Assembly: GCA_035501935.1 (NCBI GenBank)
Contig: DATJVC010000025.1
Coordinates: 8,905-72,904, forward strand
DNA: 64,000 nucleotides
Origin: Gammaproteobacteria bacterium
GTDB lineage: Bacteria > Pseudomonadota > Gammaproteobacteria > JAJPIJ01
Direction of reading: 5' to 3'
Under the pieces are notes generated by a model. That model did no database searches. It worked only from the letters and a program-made list of their open reading frames with translations, and had not been told where the DNA came from. Both the position numbers and the translations under genes were made by a program. Below are positions 16,966 to 24,797 of the stretch, in pieces. Numbering within the stretch: position 1 is the stretch's first letter; every line of letters starts with the position of its first letter.

Positions 16966-17258
16966 AATGACCCCCTCGTATATCGTCCCTTTCCCCGGGG
17001 ACGTTATTGATTATTGGCTGCACAAACTACAAGAAAACGGGAACGCCGTAAAGCGACGGCCACTCTCAGGCCTGTGACCCGCCTCGGGCATTCCGTTTTT
17101 AAGAATTCATGGTAGCATTGCGCGTGTTTTTTCGGCCCGCTTTCACGCGGGGCGGGTCAAAGCGAAAAAAATCAGGTGAAACGTGCCACCCAGGGGATGA
17201 CAGGGGCCCCGCGAGAGATGGCCATCGGGGAATATCCAGCCCCTGGAGGAACCGCATC

Positions 17259-17588
17259 ATGATGAAAAAGCATTGGCTCATGCTGACAGGCTTGGGCATG
17301 GGTTGTATTGGCATGAACGCGGCGCCGGCCGCTGGTGACGCGGCGGCGGGCAAGCTTAAGGCCGAAACCTGCATGGGCTGTCATGCCGTGGCCACCTACA
17401 AGAACGTCTACCCCACCTACAACGTGCCCAAACTTGGGGGGCAGCACCCGGAATACATCGTTTCCGCGCTCAAGGCCTACAAGTCAGGGGACCGCGCCCA
17501 CCAGACCATGCATGCCAACGCCTCCAATTTAAGCGATCAGGACATGCAGGATATCGCCGCTTTCTTCGCCGCGCAGGGCGGCAAGTAG
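17259..17588 (+). CDS. Monoheme class I cytochrome c (c4/c553-like half)
   Basis: Signal peptide, a single CMGCH heme motif, a distal Met. SD GGAGGA. Confidence 0.75.
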   Translation: MMKKHWLMLTGLGMGCIGMNAAPAAGDAAAGKLKAETCMGCHAVATYKNVYPTYNVPKLGGQHPEYIVSALKAYKSGDRAHQTMHANASNLSDQDMQDIAAFFAAQGGK

Positions 17589-17623
17589 GCATTGGCCCCA
17601 CAGAATCCATGGAGAGAGTACAC

Positions 17624-17959
17624 ATGAAAACGTTGTTAATGATCACGAGCGCCATGATGCTGTGCCTGCTGTCATTGACTGCCCGGGCGGAGGGCGATTA
17701 CGCGGCGGGGCAGCAGAAGGCCAAGGAAATCTGTGCCGCCTGCCACAACGCCGACGGCAACAGCACCAACGCGATGTATCCCAAGCTGGCCGGCCAGTGG
17801 GAAAGCTACATCGTTCAGGCCCTGAAGGAATACAAGTCGGGCGAGCGCAAAAATCCGATCATGGGCCCGATGGCCGCCCCGCTCACGGAACAGGAAGTCG
17901 AGAACGCCGCCGTGTATTTCTCGCAGCAAAAACCCGCGGTGTTCGTCCTCCAGCGTTGA
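17624..17959 (+). CDS. Monoheme class I cytochrome c (second c4-like half)
   Basis: Signal peptide, CAACH motif, paralogous to the upstream gene. SD GGAGAG. Confidence 0.75.
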   Translation: MKTLLMITSAMMLCLLSLTARAEGDYAAGQQKAKEICAACHNADGNSTNAMYPKLAGQWESYIVQALKEYKSGERKNPIMGPMAAPLTEQEVENAAVYFSQQKPAVFVLQR

Positions 17960-17994
17960 ACCGAAGCAGTTTGATCCAGAAGCAACACCGATAC

Positions 17995-18022
17995 GGCCCG
18001 GATTTCCGGGCCGTCGTTTTTT
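17995..18022 (+). terminator. Rho-independent terminator after the cytochrome c pair
   Basis: cggcccgga/tccgggccg stem followed by TCGTTTTTTG. Confidence 0.6.
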
Positions 18023-18058
18023 GCATCACACTTTCTTATCGCCCATGATTAAGCAATC

Positions 18059-18559
18059 ATGGTACGTCCCTTTAAATTCCGGCTCTCTCAACTCCCCATG
18101 CTCGACGCCGAGATCGAAAACCTGAGCCAGCGCCGGCAGGCCCTGGAGGCAGAAACCCAAGGCAAGTGGCTCACCGAATTGACGGACACCGAGACCAAAC
18201 TCGCGGACTTGAACCAGGACCTCATCAAGGCCCAGAACCGCTACACCTTGCAACAACTGGCCGCCCCCGTAGCCGGCACCGTCCAGCAACTGGCCCTCCA
18301 CACGATCGGTGGCGTAGTCACCCCTGCCCAGGAACTCATGCGCATCGTTCCTGAAGAGGACAGTATCCAAATCGAGGCCTGGGTCGAGAACAAGGACATC
18401 GGCTTTGTCCATGACGGCCAGAACACTGAAATCAAGGTAGAGACCTTCCCGTATACCAAATATGGCACCCTCACCGGCCGGCTCATCAAAGTATCCACTG
18501 ATGCCATCACCGAAATGAAGGAACTTCAGGTCGATAAGGATCACCGAAATGAAAAATAA
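18059..18559 (+). pseudogene. hlyD: hlyD remnant: the central/C-terminal ~165 aa of a type I secretion membrane-fusion protein. It lacks about 300 N-terminal and about 60 C-terminal residues.
   Basis: Aligns to E. coli HlyD residues ~300-440 (APVAGTVQQLALHTIGGVVTPAQELM...NKDIGF...KVETFPYTKYG). No TM/N-domain upstream, since the cytochrome terminator abuts it. The ORF ends at a 14-bp duplicated junction. Confidence 0.6.
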
Positions 18560-19382
18560 TTTATCTCGGGTTCCGTTGCTTGCTTTCGTTTCCCCCCTTT
18601 TAGTTTCTATGGCGGTTTACGCAGATGATTATTTACTTGATCCAGCGCCTGTGTATTACCAAGGCACGGCGCATGTTGAGACTCCATACGAAAAGCCGAC
18701 CGACTCCGGTGTTTGTGAGCTTTATCTGGAGAATCTGCGATATTTCGCAAAACAAAATATACCCATGTCCTGCGATAGACCTATAGCGCCACATTTGAAG
18801 AAGAAAATCCATGATGTAGCGTGGGAGAACCTGGATCCAGCACGGTATCCAGATCTGTTTAATGCAGTAGTTGCCGCTACTTTCCCGCCTTCAGGCGGGG
18901 GCGTGAAGCGCTGGAGTGAGGAAGTAAAAAAAGGTGTTGCTGTATTCCGGCGAGCCAAATTGCAACTGAAAGGGTATCCAACTTTTATGGGCACTTCCGG
19001 TGTAGGTACATCGCCGCCTCCACGCCCGATCGCATTTAATATTGTGCAATTTGGCATCAACCATAATGATCCAAACAGCCCTGATCCAGTATGGCGCTGC
19101 TATCCAATTCGTGGAAAGAAAGAAGGGCACGAACCAACTGACCTTCGTTTCTTTATTGTTACTGAAGATCTGACGAAAATGTACGATCAACTACGCGACA
19201 TTAATACAGGCCACACGGGAGACTATATAAAAATTATCAACACTCATCCTTATGTTGAAAGTTCATATACTGACACAGCAAATATACAAGAAATACAGTT
19301 ATCCGAAATCCAGACTAAATTCCCAGTTCATCTCGAGCCGGTTTGCCTTTACCGCTTCGATTTCATAGACAAAGGGCGGTAA
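18549..19382 (+). CDS. Orphan secreted hypothetical protein encoded on low-GC (~45%) inserted DNA
   Basis: Sec signal peptide MKNNLSRVPLLAFVSPLLVSMAVYA. No recognisable domain. Sharp GC drop relative to the flanks. Confidence 0.55.
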   Translation: MKNNLSRVPLLAFVSPLLVSMAVYADDYLLDPAPVYYQGTAHVETPYEKPTDSGVCELYLENLRYFAKQNIPMSCDRPIAPHLKKKIHDVAWENLDPARYPDLFNAVVAATFPPSGGGVKRWSEEVKKGVAVFRRAKLQLKGYPTFMGTSGVGTSPPPRPIAFNIVQFGINHNDPNSPDPVWRCYPIRGKKEGHEPTDLRFFIVTEDLTKMYDQLRDINTGHTGDYIKIINTHPYVESSYTDTANIQEIQLSEIQTKFPVHLEPVCLYRFDFIDKGR

Positions 19383-19538
19383 CATTAAGGGACGTACCAC
19401 CATTGTTTTCGAGGATTGAGGCATTAAAGATGTTGGGTTTGCTTCGTTTATGTGAGGGGAACATTAAGGGACGTACCACTATTGTTTTCGAGGATTGAGG
19501 CATTAAAGATGCTGGGTTTGCTTCGTTTATGTGAGCGA
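19381..19538 (+). repeat. Two tandem copies of a 79-bp unit with 3-4 mismatches. Each encodes the mini-ORF MLGLLRLCE... behind a GAGG SD.
   Basis: aacattaagggacgtaccac[c/t]attgttttcgaggattgaggcattaaagatg[t/c]tgggtttgcttcgtttatgtgag repeated at 19381 and 19460. A hairpin GCTTCGTT...AACGAAGC forms at the 3-prime end of copy 2. Confidence 0.8.
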
Positions 19539-19557
19539 ACGAAGCTGCGCCCCCATT

Positions 19558-20622
19558 ATGAGCGCAACCTCTAATTCCACGCCGGCGCGAATGGGCTACC
19601 GCCTGCCGGCGGAATGGGAGCCGCATCAAGCAGTGTGGTTCTCCTGGCCGCACAATCGCGAGTCATGGCCCGGCAAGTTCGAGACCGTCGAGCCGGTGAT
19701 GACTCAGGCGGTGGCGGCGATCCAGCAGAGCGAGACCGTGCGCATCAACGTGCTCGACGCCGCGCATGAAGCTCATGTGCGTGGTGTACTGGCAGCACAT
19801 CGTGTCAGCACGAACAACCTCCTCTTCCACCACTTCCCCACCAATGACGCCTGGTGCCGGGATCATGGCGCAATTTTCGTCGTGCGCGAGCAGGCCGGAC
19901 GCCGCGAACTGGCGGCAACGCACTGGGACTACAACGCCTGGGGAGATAAATATCCACCCTTCGATCGCGATCAGGAGATTCCACGACGTATGGCCGAGGC
20001 GCTGGCTGTGCCCCGGTTTGAGGGCGGCATGGTGCTGGAAGGCGGCTCCATCGAAACCAACGGCGCCGGTACCCTGCTGACGACCGAACAATGCCTGCTC
20101 AACTCCAACCGCAATCCGGGGATGAGCCGCGCGGAGATAGAGCAGCGGCTGCGCGATTTTCTGGGCGTGCAGACCATTCTCTGGCTGGGCGAAGGCATCG
20201 TCGGCGACGACACCGATGGCCATATCGACGATCTCACCCGCTTCGTGGCGGAAGATACTGTGGTCACGGTCGTCGAAGATGACCCGACGGACGCCAATTA
20301 CGCCGTATTGCAGGACAATCTGCGGCGTCTAAAGACCATGCGACTGCCAGGTGGACGCTCGCTAAACATCATCAATCTCCCGATGCCGGAACCGGTGATT
20401 TACGACGGCCAGCGCCTGCCGGCGAGCTACGCCAATTTCTACACCGGCAACACCGTGGTGCTGACGCCGGTGTTCAACTGCGCGCAGGATGCGCGGGCGC
20501 TGTCTATACTTGAACAATGCTTCCCCGGGCGGCGCGTCGTGGGTATTGATTGCACCGATTTGGTGTGGGGGTTGGGGGCTTTCCATTGCCTGACCCAACA
20601 AGTCCCCGCCACAGGCCGCTGA
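19558..20622 (+). CDS. aguA: Agmatine deiminase
   Basis: RLPAEWEPH...WFSWPH N-terminus and porphyromonas-type peptidyl-arginine deiminase fold motifs. Start ambiguous among 19531, 19558 and 19591. Confidence 0.8.
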   Translation: MSATSNSTPARMGYRLPAEWEPHQAVWFSWPHNRESWPGKFETVEPVMTQAVAAIQQSETVRINVLDAAHEAHVRGVLAAHRVSTNNLLFHHFPTNDAWCRDHGAIFVVREQAGRRELAATHWDYNAWGDKYPPFDRDQEIPRRMAEALAVPRFEGGMVLEGGSIETNGAGTLLTTEQCLLNSNRNPGMSRAEIEQRLRDFLGVQTILWLGEGIVGDDTDGHIDDLTRFVAEDTVVTVVEDDPTDANYAVLQDNLRRLKTMRLPGGRSLNIINLPMPEPVIYDGQRLPASYANFYTGNTVVLTPVFNCAQDARALSILEQCFPGRRVVGIDCTDLVWGLGAFHCLTQQVPATGR

Positions 20623-20881
20623 AAATCTATTACGGAGCCCGTCTGCGTTGTTGCTGCTCGCTCGAAAGCTCGCCGTACTGCCTTTGTACTCTCCCGCTTT
20701 CTCGCTCTCGGCGCCTGGCAGCCGTGCTTCCTCATGACGATTTACATCTGCCTGTTAACGAATCTCAACTGCTCGGCATCAGATTCACACAAAAAACACT
20801 TGCTGTTGACGGCTATTTACCCTACATTTCGCGCAAAATTTCCTCATCACACAAAAAATATGGCCAACCACAGGAACGGGA

Positions 20882-21877
20882 ATGAAAAATACGGCAGCGG
20901 TCGCTGAATTCATCCGCCATCACTACCGTCATTTCAACGCCGCCGCCCTGATCGACGCCGCCAACGGCTACATCGACCTGCTTGAAGACAACGGCAAGAT
21001 GTTCATGACCCTGGCCGGCGCCATGAGCACCGCTGAACTTGGCTTGTCGCTGGCGGAGATGATCCGGCAGGACAAAGTCCATGCCATAACCTGCACGGGC
21101 GCCAACCTTGAGGAGGACCTCTTCAACCTCGTGGCGCACGATCACTACGTCCGCCTCCCCCGATACCGCGATCTCACTCCCGAAGACGAGGAGAAGCTGC
21201 TGCAGCGCCATTTAAACCGGGTCACGGATACCTGCATCCCCGAGGATGAAGCCATCCGGCGCCTTGAAAAGGCCGTTTTAAAGGAGTGGACTGCCGCCGA
21301 CAAAAAAGGCGGAAGTTACTTTCCCCACGAATTCCTGTACCGCGTCATCAAAAGCGGCGCATTGGAAAAGCATTATCAAATCGACCCCCACGACAGCTGG
21401 CTGGTGGCCGCCTGCGAGGCCGATCTGCCGCTATTCGTCCCTGGCTGGGAAGACTCCACGCTCGGCAACATCTACGCCAGCCACTGCGTCAGCGGCACCA
21501 TCAAAAATGTTCACACGGTGCGGTCCGGCATCGAATACATGGTGTCGCTGGCACGGTGGTATCAGGCGACCTGTCGCGAGCATCCCATCGGCTTCTTCCA
21601 GATCGGCGGCGGCATCGCCGGCGACTTCCCGATTTGCGTAGTCCCGATGCTGGAGCAGGATTTGCAGATCCGGGACATCCCGCGCTGGAGCTACTTCTGC
21701 CAGATCAGCGACTCGACCACCAGTTACGGCTCCTATTCCGGCGCCGTGCCAAATGAGAAGATCACCTGGGGTAAATTGTCGGTGAAAACGCCCAAATACA
21801 TCATCGAGTCGGACGCCACCATTGTGGCTCCGCTCATTTTTGCCTGCGTGCTGTCTCCCCCGGGCCGGAAGATTTAA
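20882..21877 (+). CDS. Deoxyhypusine synthase-like protein, a probable homospermidine synthase-type polyamine enzyme
   Basis: DHS-family NAD-binding motifs (TCTGANLEEDL, GGGIAGDF). Stop overlaps the speA start (TAATG). Confidence 0.7.
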   Translation: MKNTAAVAEFIRHHYRHFNAAALIDAANGYIDLLEDNGKMFMTLAGAMSTAELGLSLAEMIRQDKVHAITCTGANLEEDLFNLVAHDHYVRLPRYRDLTPEDEEKLLQRHLNRVTDTCIPEDEAIRRLEKAVLKEWTAADKKGGSYFPHEFLYRVIKSGALEKHYQIDPHDSWLVAACEADLPLFVPGWEDSTLGNIYASHCVSGTIKNVHTVRSGIEYMVSLARWYQATCREHPIGFFQIGGGIAGDFPICVVPMLEQDLQIRDIPRWSYFCQISDSTTSYGSYSGAVPNEKITWGKLSVKTPKYIIESDATIVAPLIFACVLSPPGRKI

Positions 21878-23907
21878 TGAGCACGCCGCAACCCCTGCCC
21901 TCGCCAGCGGCTGCCGAATCGCCGGGCTGGACCGCCCAGGACGCGGAGGATTTGTACCGCATGCGCCAATGGGGCGACGGTTTCTTCTTCGTCAATGAGC
22001 GCGGGCACGTGGCCGTGCACCCGCTGAGCGATCAGGAGCTGAGCATAGACATCGCCGACGTGGTGCAGGACCTGCGCAACCGCAAGGTGAAGTTTCCAAT
22101 CCTGCTGCGATTCCAGGACGTGCTGCAGGCGCGCGTCGTGCGTCTCAACACCGCCTTTCGCGAAGCCATCGAGGGGGCGGGCTACCAGAACCATTATCAA
22201 GGCGTCTATCCCATCAAGGTCAACCAGCTGCACGAAGTGGTCGAAGAAGTCGTGGAGGCCGGCAAGCCGTTCAAGATGGGTTTGGAATGCGGCTCCAAGG
22301 CGGAACTCATCGCTGCGCTGCCGCACATGATGGACGACGAGGCGCTGTTGATCTGCAACGGCTACAAGGACGCCGTCATGCTGCGTTTGATTCTGGCCGC
22401 ACAGCAGATCGGCAAGAACGTCATTCCGGTCATGGAGAAATACGGCGAATTCGAGCACTTGCTGCGGCTGGCCCGCGATCTGAATGTCACGCCGCGTTTC
22501 GGCGTGCGCGTGCGCCTGGGCACCAGCGGCGCCGGCAAATGGGCGGAGTCCGGCGGGGATCAGTCCAAATTCGGCATCTCCATACCGGAGCTGGTCAATC
22601 TCGTCAGCCATCTCAAGGCGGATGGACTGAACGAGTCGCTGGTGCTGCTGCATTTCCACCTCGGCAGCCAGATCGCCGACGTGCAAATCCTGAAAAAGGC
22701 AGTCAAGGAAATCGCGCAAATATACGTGCAACTGCTGAAACGCGGCATGCCGCTGAAATACGTCGACGTCGGCGGCGGCCTGGGCGTCAACTACGAGGCG
22801 GGCTACGGCGGCGAGGAAAACAGCATCAATTACAGTCTGCGCGAATACGCCAACGCCGTGGTGTATTCGATGAAGGAGGTCTGCGACGAGGAGCAGAGCC
22901 CGCATCCGATCCTGATCTCGGAGAGCGGACGCGCCATCACCGCGCATCATTCCGTGTTGATCGTCGAGGCCCTGGGCGCCTACCGCAAGGACACGGTGGA
23001 GGACAACTTCATGCCGGCGCCGGAACACAACATCGTGGTCCGGCAATTGTTTGACACCCTCGCCCGCGTGCGCCAGCTCGCCGCCAACAAGCGCCGCAAG
23101 AATCCGCCGCTGGCCGAGTTGATGGAGAACTATCACGACGCCGTCGAGAAACGCCAGGAGGCCGACACTCTTTTCAACCTCGGCTATCTGCCCATGGAGG
23201 AGAAGGCGGTTGCCGAACGGCTGTACTGGACCATCTGCCGGGATATCGACAGGCAGGTCAAGAAGGCGCCCAAACCGGAATTGGTGCCGGTCGAGCTGCG
23301 CGCACTGGATGATCACTTGGTCGATCAATTTCTGTGCGATTTTTCCGTGTTCCAATCCATCCTTGACCACTGGGCCATCGGCCAGCGTTTTCCCATCCTT
23401 CCCATCCGTGGCCTCGACTGCCGCCCCACCCGTCGCGCCGTGCTGGTCGACCTGACCTGCGATTCGGACGGCAAGGTTTCACATTACGTCTCCTCGAATA
23501 CGGACAAGGACTTTCTGGAACTGCACGACTTTAAAAATGACGACCCTTACGACCTGGGCTTCTTTTTGATGGGCGCCTACCAGGACATCATGGGTGACGC
23601 GCACAACCTGTTCGGCCGCGTCTCCGAGGCGCACATTTATGCCGATGCCGCCGAGCCGGGTGGCTATTACATCGAAAAGATCATCCCCGGCACCTCCGTG
23701 CAGGAAATGCTGGCGCTGGTGCAGTATTTCCCCAACGACCTGCAGCGGCGCATGAACGACCTTATCAAGCAAAAAATAGACGAGGGTCGCATCCGTCCCA
23801 AGGCCGGCGTGGATTTGCTGGATCAATACATGCAGTGTTTCGCGCAAAGCACCTACTACGAACCCGCCACCCGGGAAACCCCGCCGAACAACGGCAATTC
23901 CGCATGA
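21877..23907 (+). CDS. speA: Biosynthetic arginine decarboxylase
   Basis: Full-length match to SpeA with the PLP-binding region and an N-terminal extension, 676 aa. Confidence 0.9.
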   Translation: MSTPQPLPSPAAAESPGWTAQDAEDLYRMRQWGDGFFFVNERGHVAVHPLSDQELSIDIADVVQDLRNRKVKFPILLRFQDVLQARVVRLNTAFREAIEGAGYQNHYQGVYPIKVNQLHEVVEEVVEAGKPFKMGLECGSKAELIAALPHMMDDEALLICNGYKDAVMLRLILAAQQIGKNVIPVMEKYGEFEHLLRLARDLNVTPRFGVRVRLGTSGAGKWAESGGDQSKFGISIPELVNLVSHLKADGLNESLVLLHFHLGSQIADVQILKKAVKEIAQIYVQLLKRGMPLKYVDVGGGLGVNYEAGYGGEENSINYSLREYANAVVYSMKEVCDEEQSPHPILISESGRAITAHHSVLIVEALGAYRKDTVEDNFMPAPEHNIVVRQLFDTLARVRQLAANKRRKNPPLAELMENYHDAVEKRQEADTLFNLGYLPMEEKAVAERLYWTICRDIDRQVKKAPKPELVPVELRALDDHLVDQFLCDFSVFQSILDHWAIGQRFPILPIRGLDCRPTRRAVLVDLTCDSDGKVSHYVSSNTDKDFLELHDFKNDDPYDLGFFLMGAYQDIMGDAHNLFGRVSEAHIYADAAEPGGYYIEKIIPGTSVQEMLALVQYFPNDLQRRMNDLIKQKIDEGRIRPKAGVDLLDQYMQCFAQSTYYEPATRETPPNNGNSA

Positions 23908-24797
23908 CCGCGTCGCGCAGCGTTCGCGTGGGTCTGGTGCAGATGGCCTGCGACCCCGACCCGGCAGGCAATCTGGACAAAGCGCTGCGCCTCGCCCGGC
24001 AGGCGGCGACAAAAGGCGCGCAGATTGTCTGCCTGCCGGAGATGTATCGCTCGCGCTACTTCTGCCAGATCGAAGACCACGCTCATTTTGAACTGGCCGA
24101 GCCCGTGCCCGGCCCTTCCAGCGATGCCTTCGGCAGGCTGGCGGCGGAGCTCGACCTCGCGATCATCGTGCCGATCTTCGAGAAGCGCGCGGCCGGTCTT
24201 TATCATAATTCCGCGCTGGTGATCGACGGCGGGCGCGGTGAGATCGGCATGTATCGCAAGATGCACATCCCCGACGATCCGCGCTTCTACGAGAAATTCT
24301 ATTTCACGCCGGGTGATCTCGGCTTCAAAAAATTTCCCACCCGCCATGCCGATGTCGGCGTGCTGATCTGCTGGGATCAATGGTATCCGGAGGCGGCGCG
24401 GCTGACCGCGCTGCAGGGCGCGCAAATCCTGTTCTACCCGACCGCCATCGGCTGGCAGCCCGCGGAAAAGGCCGAGTACGGCCGGGCCCAGCATGACAGC
24501 TGGGAAGTCATCCAGCGCGCGCATGCCATTGCCAACGGTTGCTTTGTGGCAGCCGTCAACCGCATCGGCTTTGAACCCGATCCCGCGCACGCCGGCCAGG
24601 GCATCGAGTTTTGGGGCCAAAGTTTCATCGCGGCCCCGGACGGTTCGATATTGACGCGCGCGCCCGCCGACAAAGAAGCGGTCATCGTCCAGTCGCTGGA
24701 TCTGACGCGGCTGGACTTCTCCCGCACGCACTGGCCGTTCCTGCGCGATCGCCGCATCGACGCCTATGGCGGTCTCACCCGGAGATTTTTGGATTAG
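23904..24797 (+). CDS. aguB: N-carbamoylputrescine amidase (nitrilase superfamily)
   Basis: Glu-Lys-Cys triad context (LPEM..., ICWDQWYPE). ATGA overlap with the speA stop. Confidence 0.85.
   Translation: MTASRSVRVGLVQMACDPDPAGNLDKALRLARQAATKGAQIVCLPEMYRSRYFCQIEDHAHFELAEPVPGPSSDAFGRLAAELDLAIIVPIFEKRAAGLYHNSALVIDGGRGEIGMYRKMHIPDDPRFYEKFYFTPGDLGFKKFPTRHADVGVLICWDQWYPEAARLTALQGAQILFYPTAIGWQPAEKAEYGRAQHDSWEVIQRAHAIANGCFVAAVNRIGFEPDPAHAGQGIEFWGQSFIAAPDGSILTRAPADKEAVIVQSLDLTRLDFSRTHWPFLRDRRIDAYGGLTRRFLD

Follow-up and report, generated by a model that had tools for sequence, protein, structure and literature searches.

Two head-to-tail copies of a 79-nt sequence are located upstream of a gene of the agmatine-deiminase family (aguA) in a gammaproteobacterial metagenome-assembled genome (MAG). 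On balance, we judge it rather probable that this repeat arose by simple local duplication, in tandem, within horizontally acquired DNA, and that it is most likely the scar of an illegitimate recombination or replication slippage event, and not a conserved regulatory device. The repeat belongs to a mosaic of approximately 1.5 kb that, in this lineage alone, was inserted between a cytochrome c terminator and aguA. Furthermore, the duplicated unit has the low GC content of the 277-aa gene within this mosaic, and it ends where the GC-rich native sequence restarts. Below we describe the repeat, the insertion that carries it and the short open reading frames (mini-ORFs) that it creates, and we then weigh other ways in which the arrangement might be explained. 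The coordinates of all features are collected in Table 1, wherein positions refer to the whole stretch of DNA that was analysed (64 kb, hereafter ‘the window’).

Table 1. Features of the repeat region and its surroundings, with positions in the window.
Feature	Position	Strand	Description
Intrinsic terminator, native	17993..18022	+	After the second cytochrome c gene; terminator-like site in the scan
Mosaic insertion	about 18023..19535	+	~1.5 kb; absent in L003 and L014
Weak inverted match (unit nt 1-30)	18051..18080	-	24/30 positions, core GGTACGTCCCTT; pairs with 19458-19487
hlyD-fragment ORF	18059..18559	+	HlyD-type type I secretion adaptor, internal fragment, pseudogene remnant; homology about 18098-18515
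277-aa secreted-protein gene	18549..19382	+	Intact; small uncharacterised family; GC 45%, GC3 40%
Repeat copy 1	19378..19456	+	79 nt
Repeat copy 2	19457..19535	+	79 nt; adjoins the GC-rich native aguA leader
Copy 1/copy 2 junction			...TATGTGAG then GGGAACATTAAGG; right-hand side also given as GGGAACATT
Mini-ORF 1	19430..19498	+	22 codons, reads MLGLLRLCEGNIKGRTTIVFED, then stop; SD-like motif 19411-19421
Mini-ORF 2	19509..19574	+	21 codons, reads MLGLLRLCERTKLRPHYERNL, then stop; SD-like motif 19490-19500
Hairpin	19520..19545	+	8-bp stem, 10-nt loop; GCTTCGTT (19520-19527) pairs with AACGAAGC (19538-19545)
aguA (agmatine-deiminase family)	19558..20622	+	PF04371, E = 1e-124

Geometry of the tandem duplication

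A preliminary reading made from the sequence alone (the ‘sequence-only reading’) had recognised a 79-bp tandem duplication at this location, and our analysis confirms it. The copies follow one another with no spacer and are identical at 76 of 79 positions (96%). The three mismatches are located at unit positions 3 (19380 T versus 19459 G), 24 (19401 C versus 19480 T) and 56 (19433 T versus 19512 C). The unit starts at the stop codon of the 277-aa gene, whose TAA overlaps the first bases of copy 1, and it ends 22 nt before the ATG of aguA; its length is not a multiple of 3. When TRF was applied to the whole window, this was the sole tandem repeat reported, and each half of the unit is confined to the repeat within the window (chance expectation of 0.00 matches). 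A diverged third copy following copy 2 was considered and rejected (p = 0.39).

The boundaries of the duplication show no clean microhomology; the sequence GAAC occurs repeatedly, spaced by 79 and 78 nt and hence 1 nt out of register. Both of the internal substitutions are synonymous in the frame of mini-ORF 1 (TTG/CTG for Leu, ACC/ACT for Thr), a result that is not significant for n = 2. Because the copies differ by 3 mismatches per 79 nt (3.8%), the duplication is not brand new, and with this qualification the earlier proposal of a recent event is a reasonable one. Tandem copies may collapse through recombination.

The repeat also leaves a trace in an assembly made separately from the MAG. 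The k = 31 Logan assembly of SRR8881005, which probably derives from the same reads as the MAG, breaks exactly where a loop with two variants predicts. One of its contigs (L001) carries the 277-aa gene and continues unbranched to unit position 54 with the copy-1 variants, and another (L007), which has the copy-2 variant, begins at unit position 26 and extends into aguA. These observations support a real duplication with at least two copies.

An insertion specific to this lineage

We place the left boundary of the insertion at the native intrinsic terminator, because this is the last sequence held in common with relatives that lack the interruption. The terminator aligns with its counterparts in L003, L004 and L005 up to the T-run and then diverges, and the same is true for L014. 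In L003 and L014, whose aguA genes are 83-84% identical to the one described here, the cytochrome c gene is followed after about 81 nt by aguA, with the terminator but no genes between. Given that these two close relatives run from the cytochrome c terminator directly into aguA, about 18023-19535 is a lineage-specific insertion. At the right edge, GC content jumps from 42-45% to 64% at 19535/19536, and homology to a further relative (L002) restarts at 19553. Expressed as fractions, GC content is 0.42-0.43 in the unit, 0.45 in the 277-aa gene, 0.64 in the 22 nt past the repeat, 0.62 in aguA and 0.595 in the window.

The insertion comprises an internal fragment of an hlyD gene, an intact gene of low GC content that encodes a secreted protein of 277 aa, and both copies of the repeat. 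The hlyD fragment covers only 216-360 of the 422 positions in TIGR01843, also matches Pfam HlyD_3 and lacks both ends of the protein. Its best homologues are at most 61% identical, its GC content (58%) resembles that of the host (about 60%) and a parental copy was not found within the 64-kb window.

The 277-aa protein has no match in Pfam or NCBIfam. A word-indexed search returned only the protein itself, and an exhaustive phmmer search returned 61 remote homologues (best identity 47%). The natural C-terminus is conserved. The AlphaFold2 model of this protein has a pLDDT of 89. Because the gene has no close homologue elsewhere, there is no second lineage that carries the unit. The other end of this low-GC gene is marked by another short direct repeat (14 nt long, with a separation of 34 nt). 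The possibility that the left junction is a decayed duplicate of the 5′ end of aguA was also considered and was rejected (p = 0.12-0.84).

The start codon of aguA (ATG, 19558) aligns with those of the orthologues in L002 and L015, and the N-terminus aligns with that of L002. Neither this gene nor its orthologues have a recognisable Shine-Dalgarno (SD) sequence of their own, and no terminator was found between the 277-aa gene and aguA in the promoter/terminator scan. The sequence-only reading grouped aguA with the DHS-like, speA and aguB genes in one operon. This grouping is uncertain: upstream of the DHS-like gene is a spacer of 260 nt that includes a conserved promoter-like stretch.

Mini-ORFs and a hairpin at the repeat junctions

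Several details of the sequence-only reading hold at the nucleotide level. In each copy, the SD-like motif GAGGATTGAGG (19411-19421 and 19490-19500) is separated by 8 nt from an ATG (19430 and 19509). The mini-ORFs of 22 and 21 aa that begin there are as described, with the second crossing the start of aguA, and the 8-bp-stem hairpin at the end of copy 2 is present. The first nine codons are the only part common to both mini-ORFs, and their C-terminal halves are unrelated. Copy 2 supplies the tail of mini-ORF 1 from its 5′ portion, and the TGA stop codon of this mini-ORF is located within the copy-2 SD-like motif. The tail of mini-ORF 2 is supplied by the native leader of aguA and by the first 17 nt of the gene itself, read in another frame, such that its stop codon is located 14 nt downstream of the aguA ATG. 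On geometry only, it is thus possible that aguA translation could be coupled to mini-ORF 2 as an accident of the junction.

The hairpin is formed by a 5′ arm in copy 2 and a 3′ arm in the flank, and it is located entirely within mini-ORF 2. It leaves the aguA start codon uncovered, no T-run follows it on either strand and the terminator scan makes no call there. Structure predictions for the remainder of the region are similarly plain. The fold of the repeat region is no better than those of shuffled sequences (z-scores of +0.49 and -0.92), and for a single unit the predicted energies of -1.6 (one strand) and -1.8 kcal/mol (the other) fall short of those of its own shuffles. An Rfam 15 scan of 17900-19800 yielded no match at E <= 1, and the promoter/terminator scan revealed no promoter-like or terminator-like site within the repeat. 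The same scan lists a promoter-like candidate site at 19270-19299.

Searches for further copies of the unit

The sequence-only reading had suggested that the unit might be a small repeat element and had named a search for additional copies as one check. No further copy was found in the window or in any of the collections scanned (185,579 species genomes, along with metagenome, viral, plasmid and phage collections), and the suggestion is not supported within this scope, which for the source genome is the 64-kb window. Metagenome contigs contained 0 matches to a 22-mer that spans the SD-like motif and the ATG, and viral contigs contained 0 matches to a 19-mer taken from this stretch. No match to the unit at E <= 1 was present in the plasmid and phage collections.

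A 20-mer core pattern gave six genome, eight metagenome and zero viral matches (185,579 genomes, JGI metagenomes and IMG/VR). All 14 matches are isolated and none extends. All except one (13/14) are located in unrelated coding genes that read KGRT(T/I)I at this site, including genes for LpxA, ParB, MurA and ABC ATPases. One match (L021, 22/22) is intergenic and near a toxin-antitoxin-like pair, and another (L023, 24/26) is in an ABC ATPase gene. We also considered whether the arms of the inverted match listed in Table 1 might be relics of an ABC-exporter gene (NIKGRTTIVF, NLKGRTMIA); the stretches are very short and give no Pfam signal, and this candidate was not retained. A single unit has no dyad symmetry or stable hairpin. 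An integron attC site was rejected, as neither strand of the unit forms a hairpin, and a type III antitoxin repeat was rejected on structure and gene context.

Target-site duplications are short (a few to about 14 bp), are derived from the target and flank the element. The further proposal that the repeat is a duplicated target site was correct to the extent that there is an adjacent insertion, with the repeat at its right junction. It is otherwise not sustained, because both copies are located on one side of the insertion, are 79 nt in length and have an insert-like composition. In addition, no copy of the repeat is present at the left junction (18023 onward), and the unit is absent from the empty sites of L003 and L014.

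A scar of local duplication as the best explanation

Small tandem (segmental) duplications arise by replication slippage or illegitimate recombination, often at the junctions of acquired DNA. The repeat upstream of aguA resembles such duplications in being head-to-tail with no spacer, in its location at a border between foreign and native DNA, in being unique in the window and in having no structure or family of its own. Its contiguous copies, their high identity and the Logan contigs that end where a loop is expected are likewise the attributes of a simple tandem duplication. It differs from the known examples in that there is no clean microhomology at its boundaries, in that it is not very recent and in that a second short direct repeat is nearby.

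If the repeat is such a scar, the unit would be the 3′ flank that arrived together with the foreign gene, and its strong SD and ATG would probably be the beginning of a donor gene, truncated after nine codons. The flank would later have been doubled head to tail, and the three substitutions would have been gained since. The mini-ORFs would be by-products, with tails dictated by the copy 1/copy 2 and copy 2/aguA junctions. Ribosomes loading at the copy-2 SD would be expected to melt the hairpin and to terminate 14 nt past the aguA ATG. Some characteristics count against this reading. The near-ideal SD with its 8-nt spacing, the end of mini-ORF 2 inside aguA and the bridging hairpin would also fit a coupling device under selection, and the 3.8% substitutions indicate that the duplication has lasted some time.

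Weighing of alternative explanations

We considered whether a single-copy region with strain variants could have been miswritten as a tandem repeat during assembly. The source is a MAG, the 79-nt period equals a default MEGAHIT k-mer size and short-read contigs break at the repeat, all of which would suit an artefact. However, the ends of L001 and L007 form the signature of a loop and not that of a strain bubble, and a de Bruijn assembler cannot write the copy 1/copy 2 junction unless it is present in the reads. Nor is this an undetected exact k-mer overlap, because the copies differ at three positions. We give an artefact extremely little credence. Another reading treats the repeat as the relic of a mobile-element end. 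The first 30 nt of the unit would form a terminal inverted repeat with 18051-18080, the insert would be a transposase-less MIC- or MITE-like cassette whose right end was duplicated, and the SD and ATG would mark the start of a lost transposase. As with IS and MITE ends, the repeat is at the edge of an insertion and there is a weak inverted match near the other edge. This match covers 24/30 positions with a 13-nt exact core, and both arms reside in low-GC DNA close to the two boundaries of the insert. Moreover, the region upstream of aguA is insertion-prone, because L002 carries an IS3-family end 22 nt before its aguA gene. Unlike IS and MITE ends, however, both copies are on one side and share the insert's composition, and no others were found in the window or the collections scanned. 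The inverted match does not exceed chance: 10% of shuffled inserts give an equal or better match in an insert-wide BLAST test, and the E-value is 0.29. Terminal inverted repeats looked significant in a local test but not insert-wide. The arms are located 28 nt and 48 nt inside the boundaries, there is no flanking target-site duplication and the flanking bases differ. Furthermore, a transposase gene is lacking, scans of 185,579 genomes, JGI metagenomes and IMG/VR with the arm pattern reveal no related element, and the core GGTACGTCCC is nearly palindromic by itself. We consider an element relic to be very unlikely.

The remaining alternatives assign a function to the mini-ORFs. In a functional upstream ORF relay, the duplication would have been kept because the SD-led mini-ORFs link translation of aguA to that of the inserted gene, whether or not the nascent peptide also senses agmatine or polyamines as in speFL or mdtU. 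The path would lead from the stop codon of the 277-aa gene across 47 nt to mini-ORF 1, across 10 nt to mini-ORF 2 and into the 17-nt overlap with aguA. Polyamine-sensing upstream ORFs are known from E. coli, where speFL senses ornithine and the mdtU upstream ORF senses spermidine (PMC7815308, PMC8429421). SpeFL is conserved in certain gamma-proteobacteria, has an N-terminal sensor and a C-terminal effector domain, and acts via Rho and mRNA structure (PMC8429421, PMC7815308). As with these leaders, there is a short SD-led ORF right upstream of a polyamine-pathway gene, which overlaps its initiation region. The SD-like motif is strong with 8-nt spacing, the mini-ORF 1 stop codon resides inside the SD of mini-ORF 2 and that of mini-ORF 2 just past the aguA ATG, the hairpin is within mini-ORF 2 and both internal substitutions are synonymous. 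The absence of a terminator between the 277-aa gene and aguA would also suit a relay. As in termination-reinitiation coupling, mini-ORF 2 stops 14 nt into an SD-less aguA and its hairpin could be opened by ribosomes, a likeness of geometry only. However, the peptide is foreign and is absent from all relatives examined, and the region is wholly missing in L003 and L014. There is no SD-led upstream ORF before aguA in L002, L003, L014 or L015 (aguA 78-84% identical). Since these orthologues have neither an SD nor an upstream ORF, which is unlike termination-reinitiation coupling, such coupling is unnecessary for aguA expression in relatives. The C-terminal halves of the peptides are set by the junctions and are unrelated, and in SpeFL this half is the effector domain (PMC8429421). 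Also unlike speFL and mdtU, no terminator or RBS-sequestering structure is predicted, and the hairpin leaves the aguA start codon uncovered. We regard a functional relay as unlikely. The polyamine- or agmatine-responsive leader proposed in the sequence-only reading fares poorly for the same reasons, with a unit that is part of inserted low-GC DNA, no SD-led upstream ORF in relatives and only nine shared codons. There is an even slimmer chance, which we rate as highly unlikely, that this is a newborn module. The chance SD and ATG of a foreign flank would have been duplicated and then retained after aguA lost its native upstream context, and a relay of two mini-ORFs would drive aguA by termination-reinitiation, possibly with polyamine- or agmatine-sensitive stalling.

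Implications

With local duplication as the preferred explanation, the repeat as it stands is one more small tandem duplication that edges horizontally acquired DNA, and it matters little in itself. It does offer a caution that an accident at a junction can yield an SD-led mini-ORF that overlaps a polyamine gene. The analysis also provides a map of how a foreign fragment took the place of the sequence natively upstream of the first gene beside an agmatine/SpeY-type homospermidine cluster. Nothing in the comparative data points to control of aguA by a mini-ORF relay. If it were true that such a relay controls aguA, this would be a rare leader peptide caught at birth, formed de novo for a gene of the homospermidine pathway.

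A tandem duplication within foreign DNA upstream of aguA

Two adjoining copies of a 79-nt unit, identical at 76 of 79 positions and free of indels, were identified upstream of aguA both by repeat finding and by Tandem Repeats Finder, which gave this as its sole tandem repeat for the window. The tandem duplication proposed in the sequence-only reading is thus borne out, as are its two mini-ORFs, the overlap with the aguA start and the 8-bp hairpin. Neither half of the unit occurs elsewhere in the 64-kb window when up to three mismatches are allowed (0.00 expected by chance). Each copy carries GAGGATTGAGG followed, after 8 nt, by an ATG. The ATG at 19558 is the start of aguA, whose first residues align with the orthologue on a relative's contig (L002), and therefore mini-ORF 2 shares 17 nt with aguA, read in a different frame. 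This start lies outside the hairpin. Gene order was established from Pfam and NCBIfam scans.

Features between the cytochrome c genes and the polyamine genes
Feature	Position	Strand	Remarks
Two cytochrome c genes	17109-17588 and 17609-17959
ORF with partial HlyD match	18059-18559		match limited to positions 216-360 of the HlyD type I secretion adaptor profile (422 positions)
Gene for 277-aa protein	18549-19382		signal peptide; no annotation from Pfam/NCBIfam
Repeat copy 1	19378-19456
Repeat copy 2	19457-19535
Mini-ORF 1	19430-19498	+	MLGLLRLCEGNIKGRTTIVFED, then stop
Mini-ORF 2	19509-19574	+	MLGLLRLCERTKLRPHYERNL, then stop
Hairpin	19520-19527 and 19538-19545		GCTTCGTT pairs with AACGAAGC; 8-bp stem
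aguA	19558-20622		agmatine-deiminase family (Pfam/NCBIfam)
DHS-like gene, speA, aguB-like gene	after aguA		deoxyhypusine-synthase-like (DHS-like)

Given that 79 is a common assembler k-mer size and that the source is, by its record name, a metagenome-assembled gammaproteobacterial genome, we examined an independent assembly (Logan, k=31, run SRR8881005). One of its contigs (L001) takes in the PagL, cytochrome c and 277-aa genes and ends at unit position 54 with the copy-1 variants present; another (L007), which has the copy-2 variant, begins at unit position 26 and extends into aguA. These breaks are the ones predicted if the 31-mer at unit positions 25-55 has two entry and two exit contexts. 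The pattern is that of a loop and not of a strain bubble, and therefore the duplication is most likely real, with at least two copies.

Relatives' contigs were retrieved by a search for aguA homologues. Two of these, L003 (GCA_037025365.1) and L014, encode aguA products 83% and 84% identical to that of the window and share its neighbours, with a sigma-54 activator, PagL and cytochrome c genes upstream and DHS-like, speA and aguB genes downstream. In both, the second cytochrome c gene, a terminator and aguA follow one another within ~80-100 nt. Their alignment with the window holds to the terminator T-run at 18022 and diverges beyond it, and homology between L002 and the window restarts at 19553. 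GC content is 42-48% from ~18400 to 19540 versus ~60% elsewhere; the fractions are 0.42-0.43 for the unit, 0.45 for the 277-aa gene (GC3 0.40), 0.64 for the 22 nt past copy 2 and 0.62 for aguA. The alignments and the GC switch together place the entire repeat within inserted DNA, with the right-hand junction at ~19535/19536. These comparisons show that, in this lineage alone, the cytochrome c terminator is separated from aguA by foreign DNA, comprising an hlyD fragment, a low-GC gene and its 3' flank.

Composition of the insert

The hlyD piece is an internal fragment, with homology from ~18098 to 18515 and both protein ends absent. Its GC content is host-like (58%, GC3 72%), unlike that of the adjoining low-GC gene. 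No close relative was found anywhere, all homologues being at most 61% identical, and the window holds no parental copy. The 277-aa gene is intact, since the C-terminus of its product matches the family end. A word-indexed search with this protein returned only itself, and an exhaustive phmmer search gave 61 remote relatives, the best of which (47% identity) sits between two RTX-repeat proteins. The closest relative, on contig L028 (68% identical over 112 residues), comes after an RTX-like protein and is interrupted by an IS3-family element. On the basis of these RTX neighbours, the insert looks like the remains of a type I secretion/RTX locus.

An exact 14-nt direct repeat, ATCACCGAAATGAA, is present at 18506-18519 and 18540-18553 (34 nt apart), at the junction of the hlyD fragment and the 277-aa gene, and its second copy includes the ATG of that gene. 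With this pair, the low-GC segment has a short-range duplication at its other end as well, as would suit a junction left untidy and scarred by recombination.

IS3-family element ends are found at L028:6330-6475 and L002:1-160, both from JGI sample 3300038770. In L028 the element breaks the 277-aa-gene homologue at codon 112 (left end TGAACCGCCCC..., OrfA start MNTTKRYSPEVRERAVRLL), and the L002 contig, whose aguA is 84% identical, opens with the corresponding right end ...GGGGCGGTTCA, located 22 nt ahead of aguA. These ends may belong to one IS copy, although their flanking triplets differ; if they do, that homologue of the 277-aa gene would lie upstream of aguA there too. Whether or not this is so, the stretch ahead of aguA is prone to insertions.

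Read on the opposite strand, 18051-18080 (28 nt in from the left boundary of the insertion) agrees with the first 30 nt of the unit at 24 of 30 positions. This match looked significant in a local shuffle test; across the whole insert, 10% of shuffled inserts gave an equal or better inverted BLAST match, and the window-wide E-value is 0.29. No transposase, flanking duplication or related element elsewhere was found to accompany it, and a role as terminal inverted repeats is unproven. The arms (18051-18080 versus 19381-19408 and 19460-19487) share a nearly palindromic core, GGTACGTCCC. Read in one frame, they give NLKGRTMIA and NIKGRTTIVFED, each ending in a stop, which resemble the KGRTTI.IAHRL stretch of ABC exporters, a resemblance confined to very short arms.

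Origin of the repeat and its mini-ORFs

The sequence-only reading had offered a duplicated target site, a small repeat element and a leader peptide as explanations. An insertion does adjoin the repeat, as the first of these supposes; nevertheless, both copies lie on one side of it and the left junction lacks any copy of the unit. These one-sided copies, the 79-nt length, the insert-like sequence and the absence of the unit from the empty sites of L003 and L014 rule out a target-site duplication. A repeat element is likewise disfavoured, because neither the 64 kb of source genome nor the scanned collections yielded more copies of the 79-mer. Exact matches were lacking for a 22-mer spanning the SD-like motif to the ATG in JGI metagenome contigs and for a 19-mer from the same stretch in IMG/VR. 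For a degenerate 20-mer taken from the unit's 5' part, there were six matches in 185,579 species genomes, eight in metagenomes and none in viral contigs. None of these 14 extends past the pattern, and 13 are in frame in unrelated coding genes reading KGRT(T/I)I (such as LpxA, ParB, MurA and ABC ATPases). The source genome lies outside the scanned collections, since its own copies were not returned. BLAST of the region against plasmids and phages gave no match at E <= 1. A single unit forms no hairpin on either strand, which rules out an attC-like or REP-like element.

If a leader regulates a gene, the two should be conserved together. All four relatives (L002, L003, L014 and L015) lack an SD-led ORF upstream of aguA, and in L003 and L014 the space before aguA fits only the terminator and ~20 nt. 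The C-terminal part of SpeFL is an effector domain that blocks release, and this leader works through mRNA structure and Rho (PMC8429421, PMC7815308). The repeat shows no counterpart to this. The repeat region has no Rfam match, fold energies no better than those of shuffles and no internal terminator, and a full-text literature search gave no account of aguA being under the control of an upstream ORF. The two mini-ORFs have nine codons in common. The residual 13 residues of mini-ORF 1 are read from the next copy, and the residual 12 of mini-ORF 2 from the native leader and out-of-frame aguA, so that the tails are dictated by the junctions. With no counterpart in relatives, only nine shared codons and no RNA signal, the proposed polyamine- or agmatine-responsive leader peptide loses its footing, and the mini-ORFs are best explained as by-products of the duplication.

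Some features would suit mini-ORFs that have been kept as a functional coupling device for aguA. The duplication is old enough to have gained three substitutions, the two internal ones are synonymous for mini-ORF 1, the SD is a strong one, and the 8-bp hairpin across unit and flank is somewhat unlikely to arise by chance. Set against these is the fact that aguA orthologues have neither an SD nor an upstream ORF. The features listed keep such a device in play as a minority reading, unlikely overall, and its polyamine-sensing version is very improbable. The feature is a small tandem duplication within a lineage-specific insertion, real and of an ordinary kind.

The downstream polyamine genes

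The aguA/DHS-like spacer is ~125 nt longer in the window than in L002, and a 53-nt stretch within it (20705-20757) is 81% identical to intergenic L028:4894-4945 on the opposite strand. This stretch occurs once in the window, has no Rfam match and may be a small mobile or regulatory sequence. Ahead of the DHS-like gene, both the window (20783-20835) and L002 (1265-1317) carry a conserved promoter-like stretch, CAAAAAACACTTGCTGT.G.CGG.TATTTACCCTACATTTCGCGCAAA, and the gap from aguA to the DHS-like gene is 260 nt. The DHS-like, speA and aguB genes may thus have their own promoter, and aguA need not share their operon. The cluster at 19558-24797 (aguA-like, DHS-like, speA and aguB-like) corresponds to the agmatine/SpeY route to homospermidine, in which the 'agmatine deiminases' associated with SpeY have N1,N9-bis(guanidino)homospermidine, not agmatine, as their substrate (PMC13625781). 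In keeping with this, the aguA-like and aguB-like proteins fall short of the NCBIfam equivalog cut-offs.

Proposed history and effect on aguA

We infer that the incoming 3' flank bore an SD and an ATG, with which the following donor gene, cut off after nine codons, probably began. Slippage or illegitimate recombination would then have doubled this flank head to tail, and the copies would have diverged at three positions afterwards. No terminator is found between the 277-aa gene and aguA, and aguA itself lacks an SD. Ribosomes loading at the copy-2 SD would melt the hairpin and terminate 14 nt beyond the aguA ATG, a geometry that permits reinitiation at aguA. Relatives need no such coupling, given that their aguA orthologues have neither an SD nor an upstream ORF, and any translational coupling between mini-ORF and aguA in this lineage is probably incidental.
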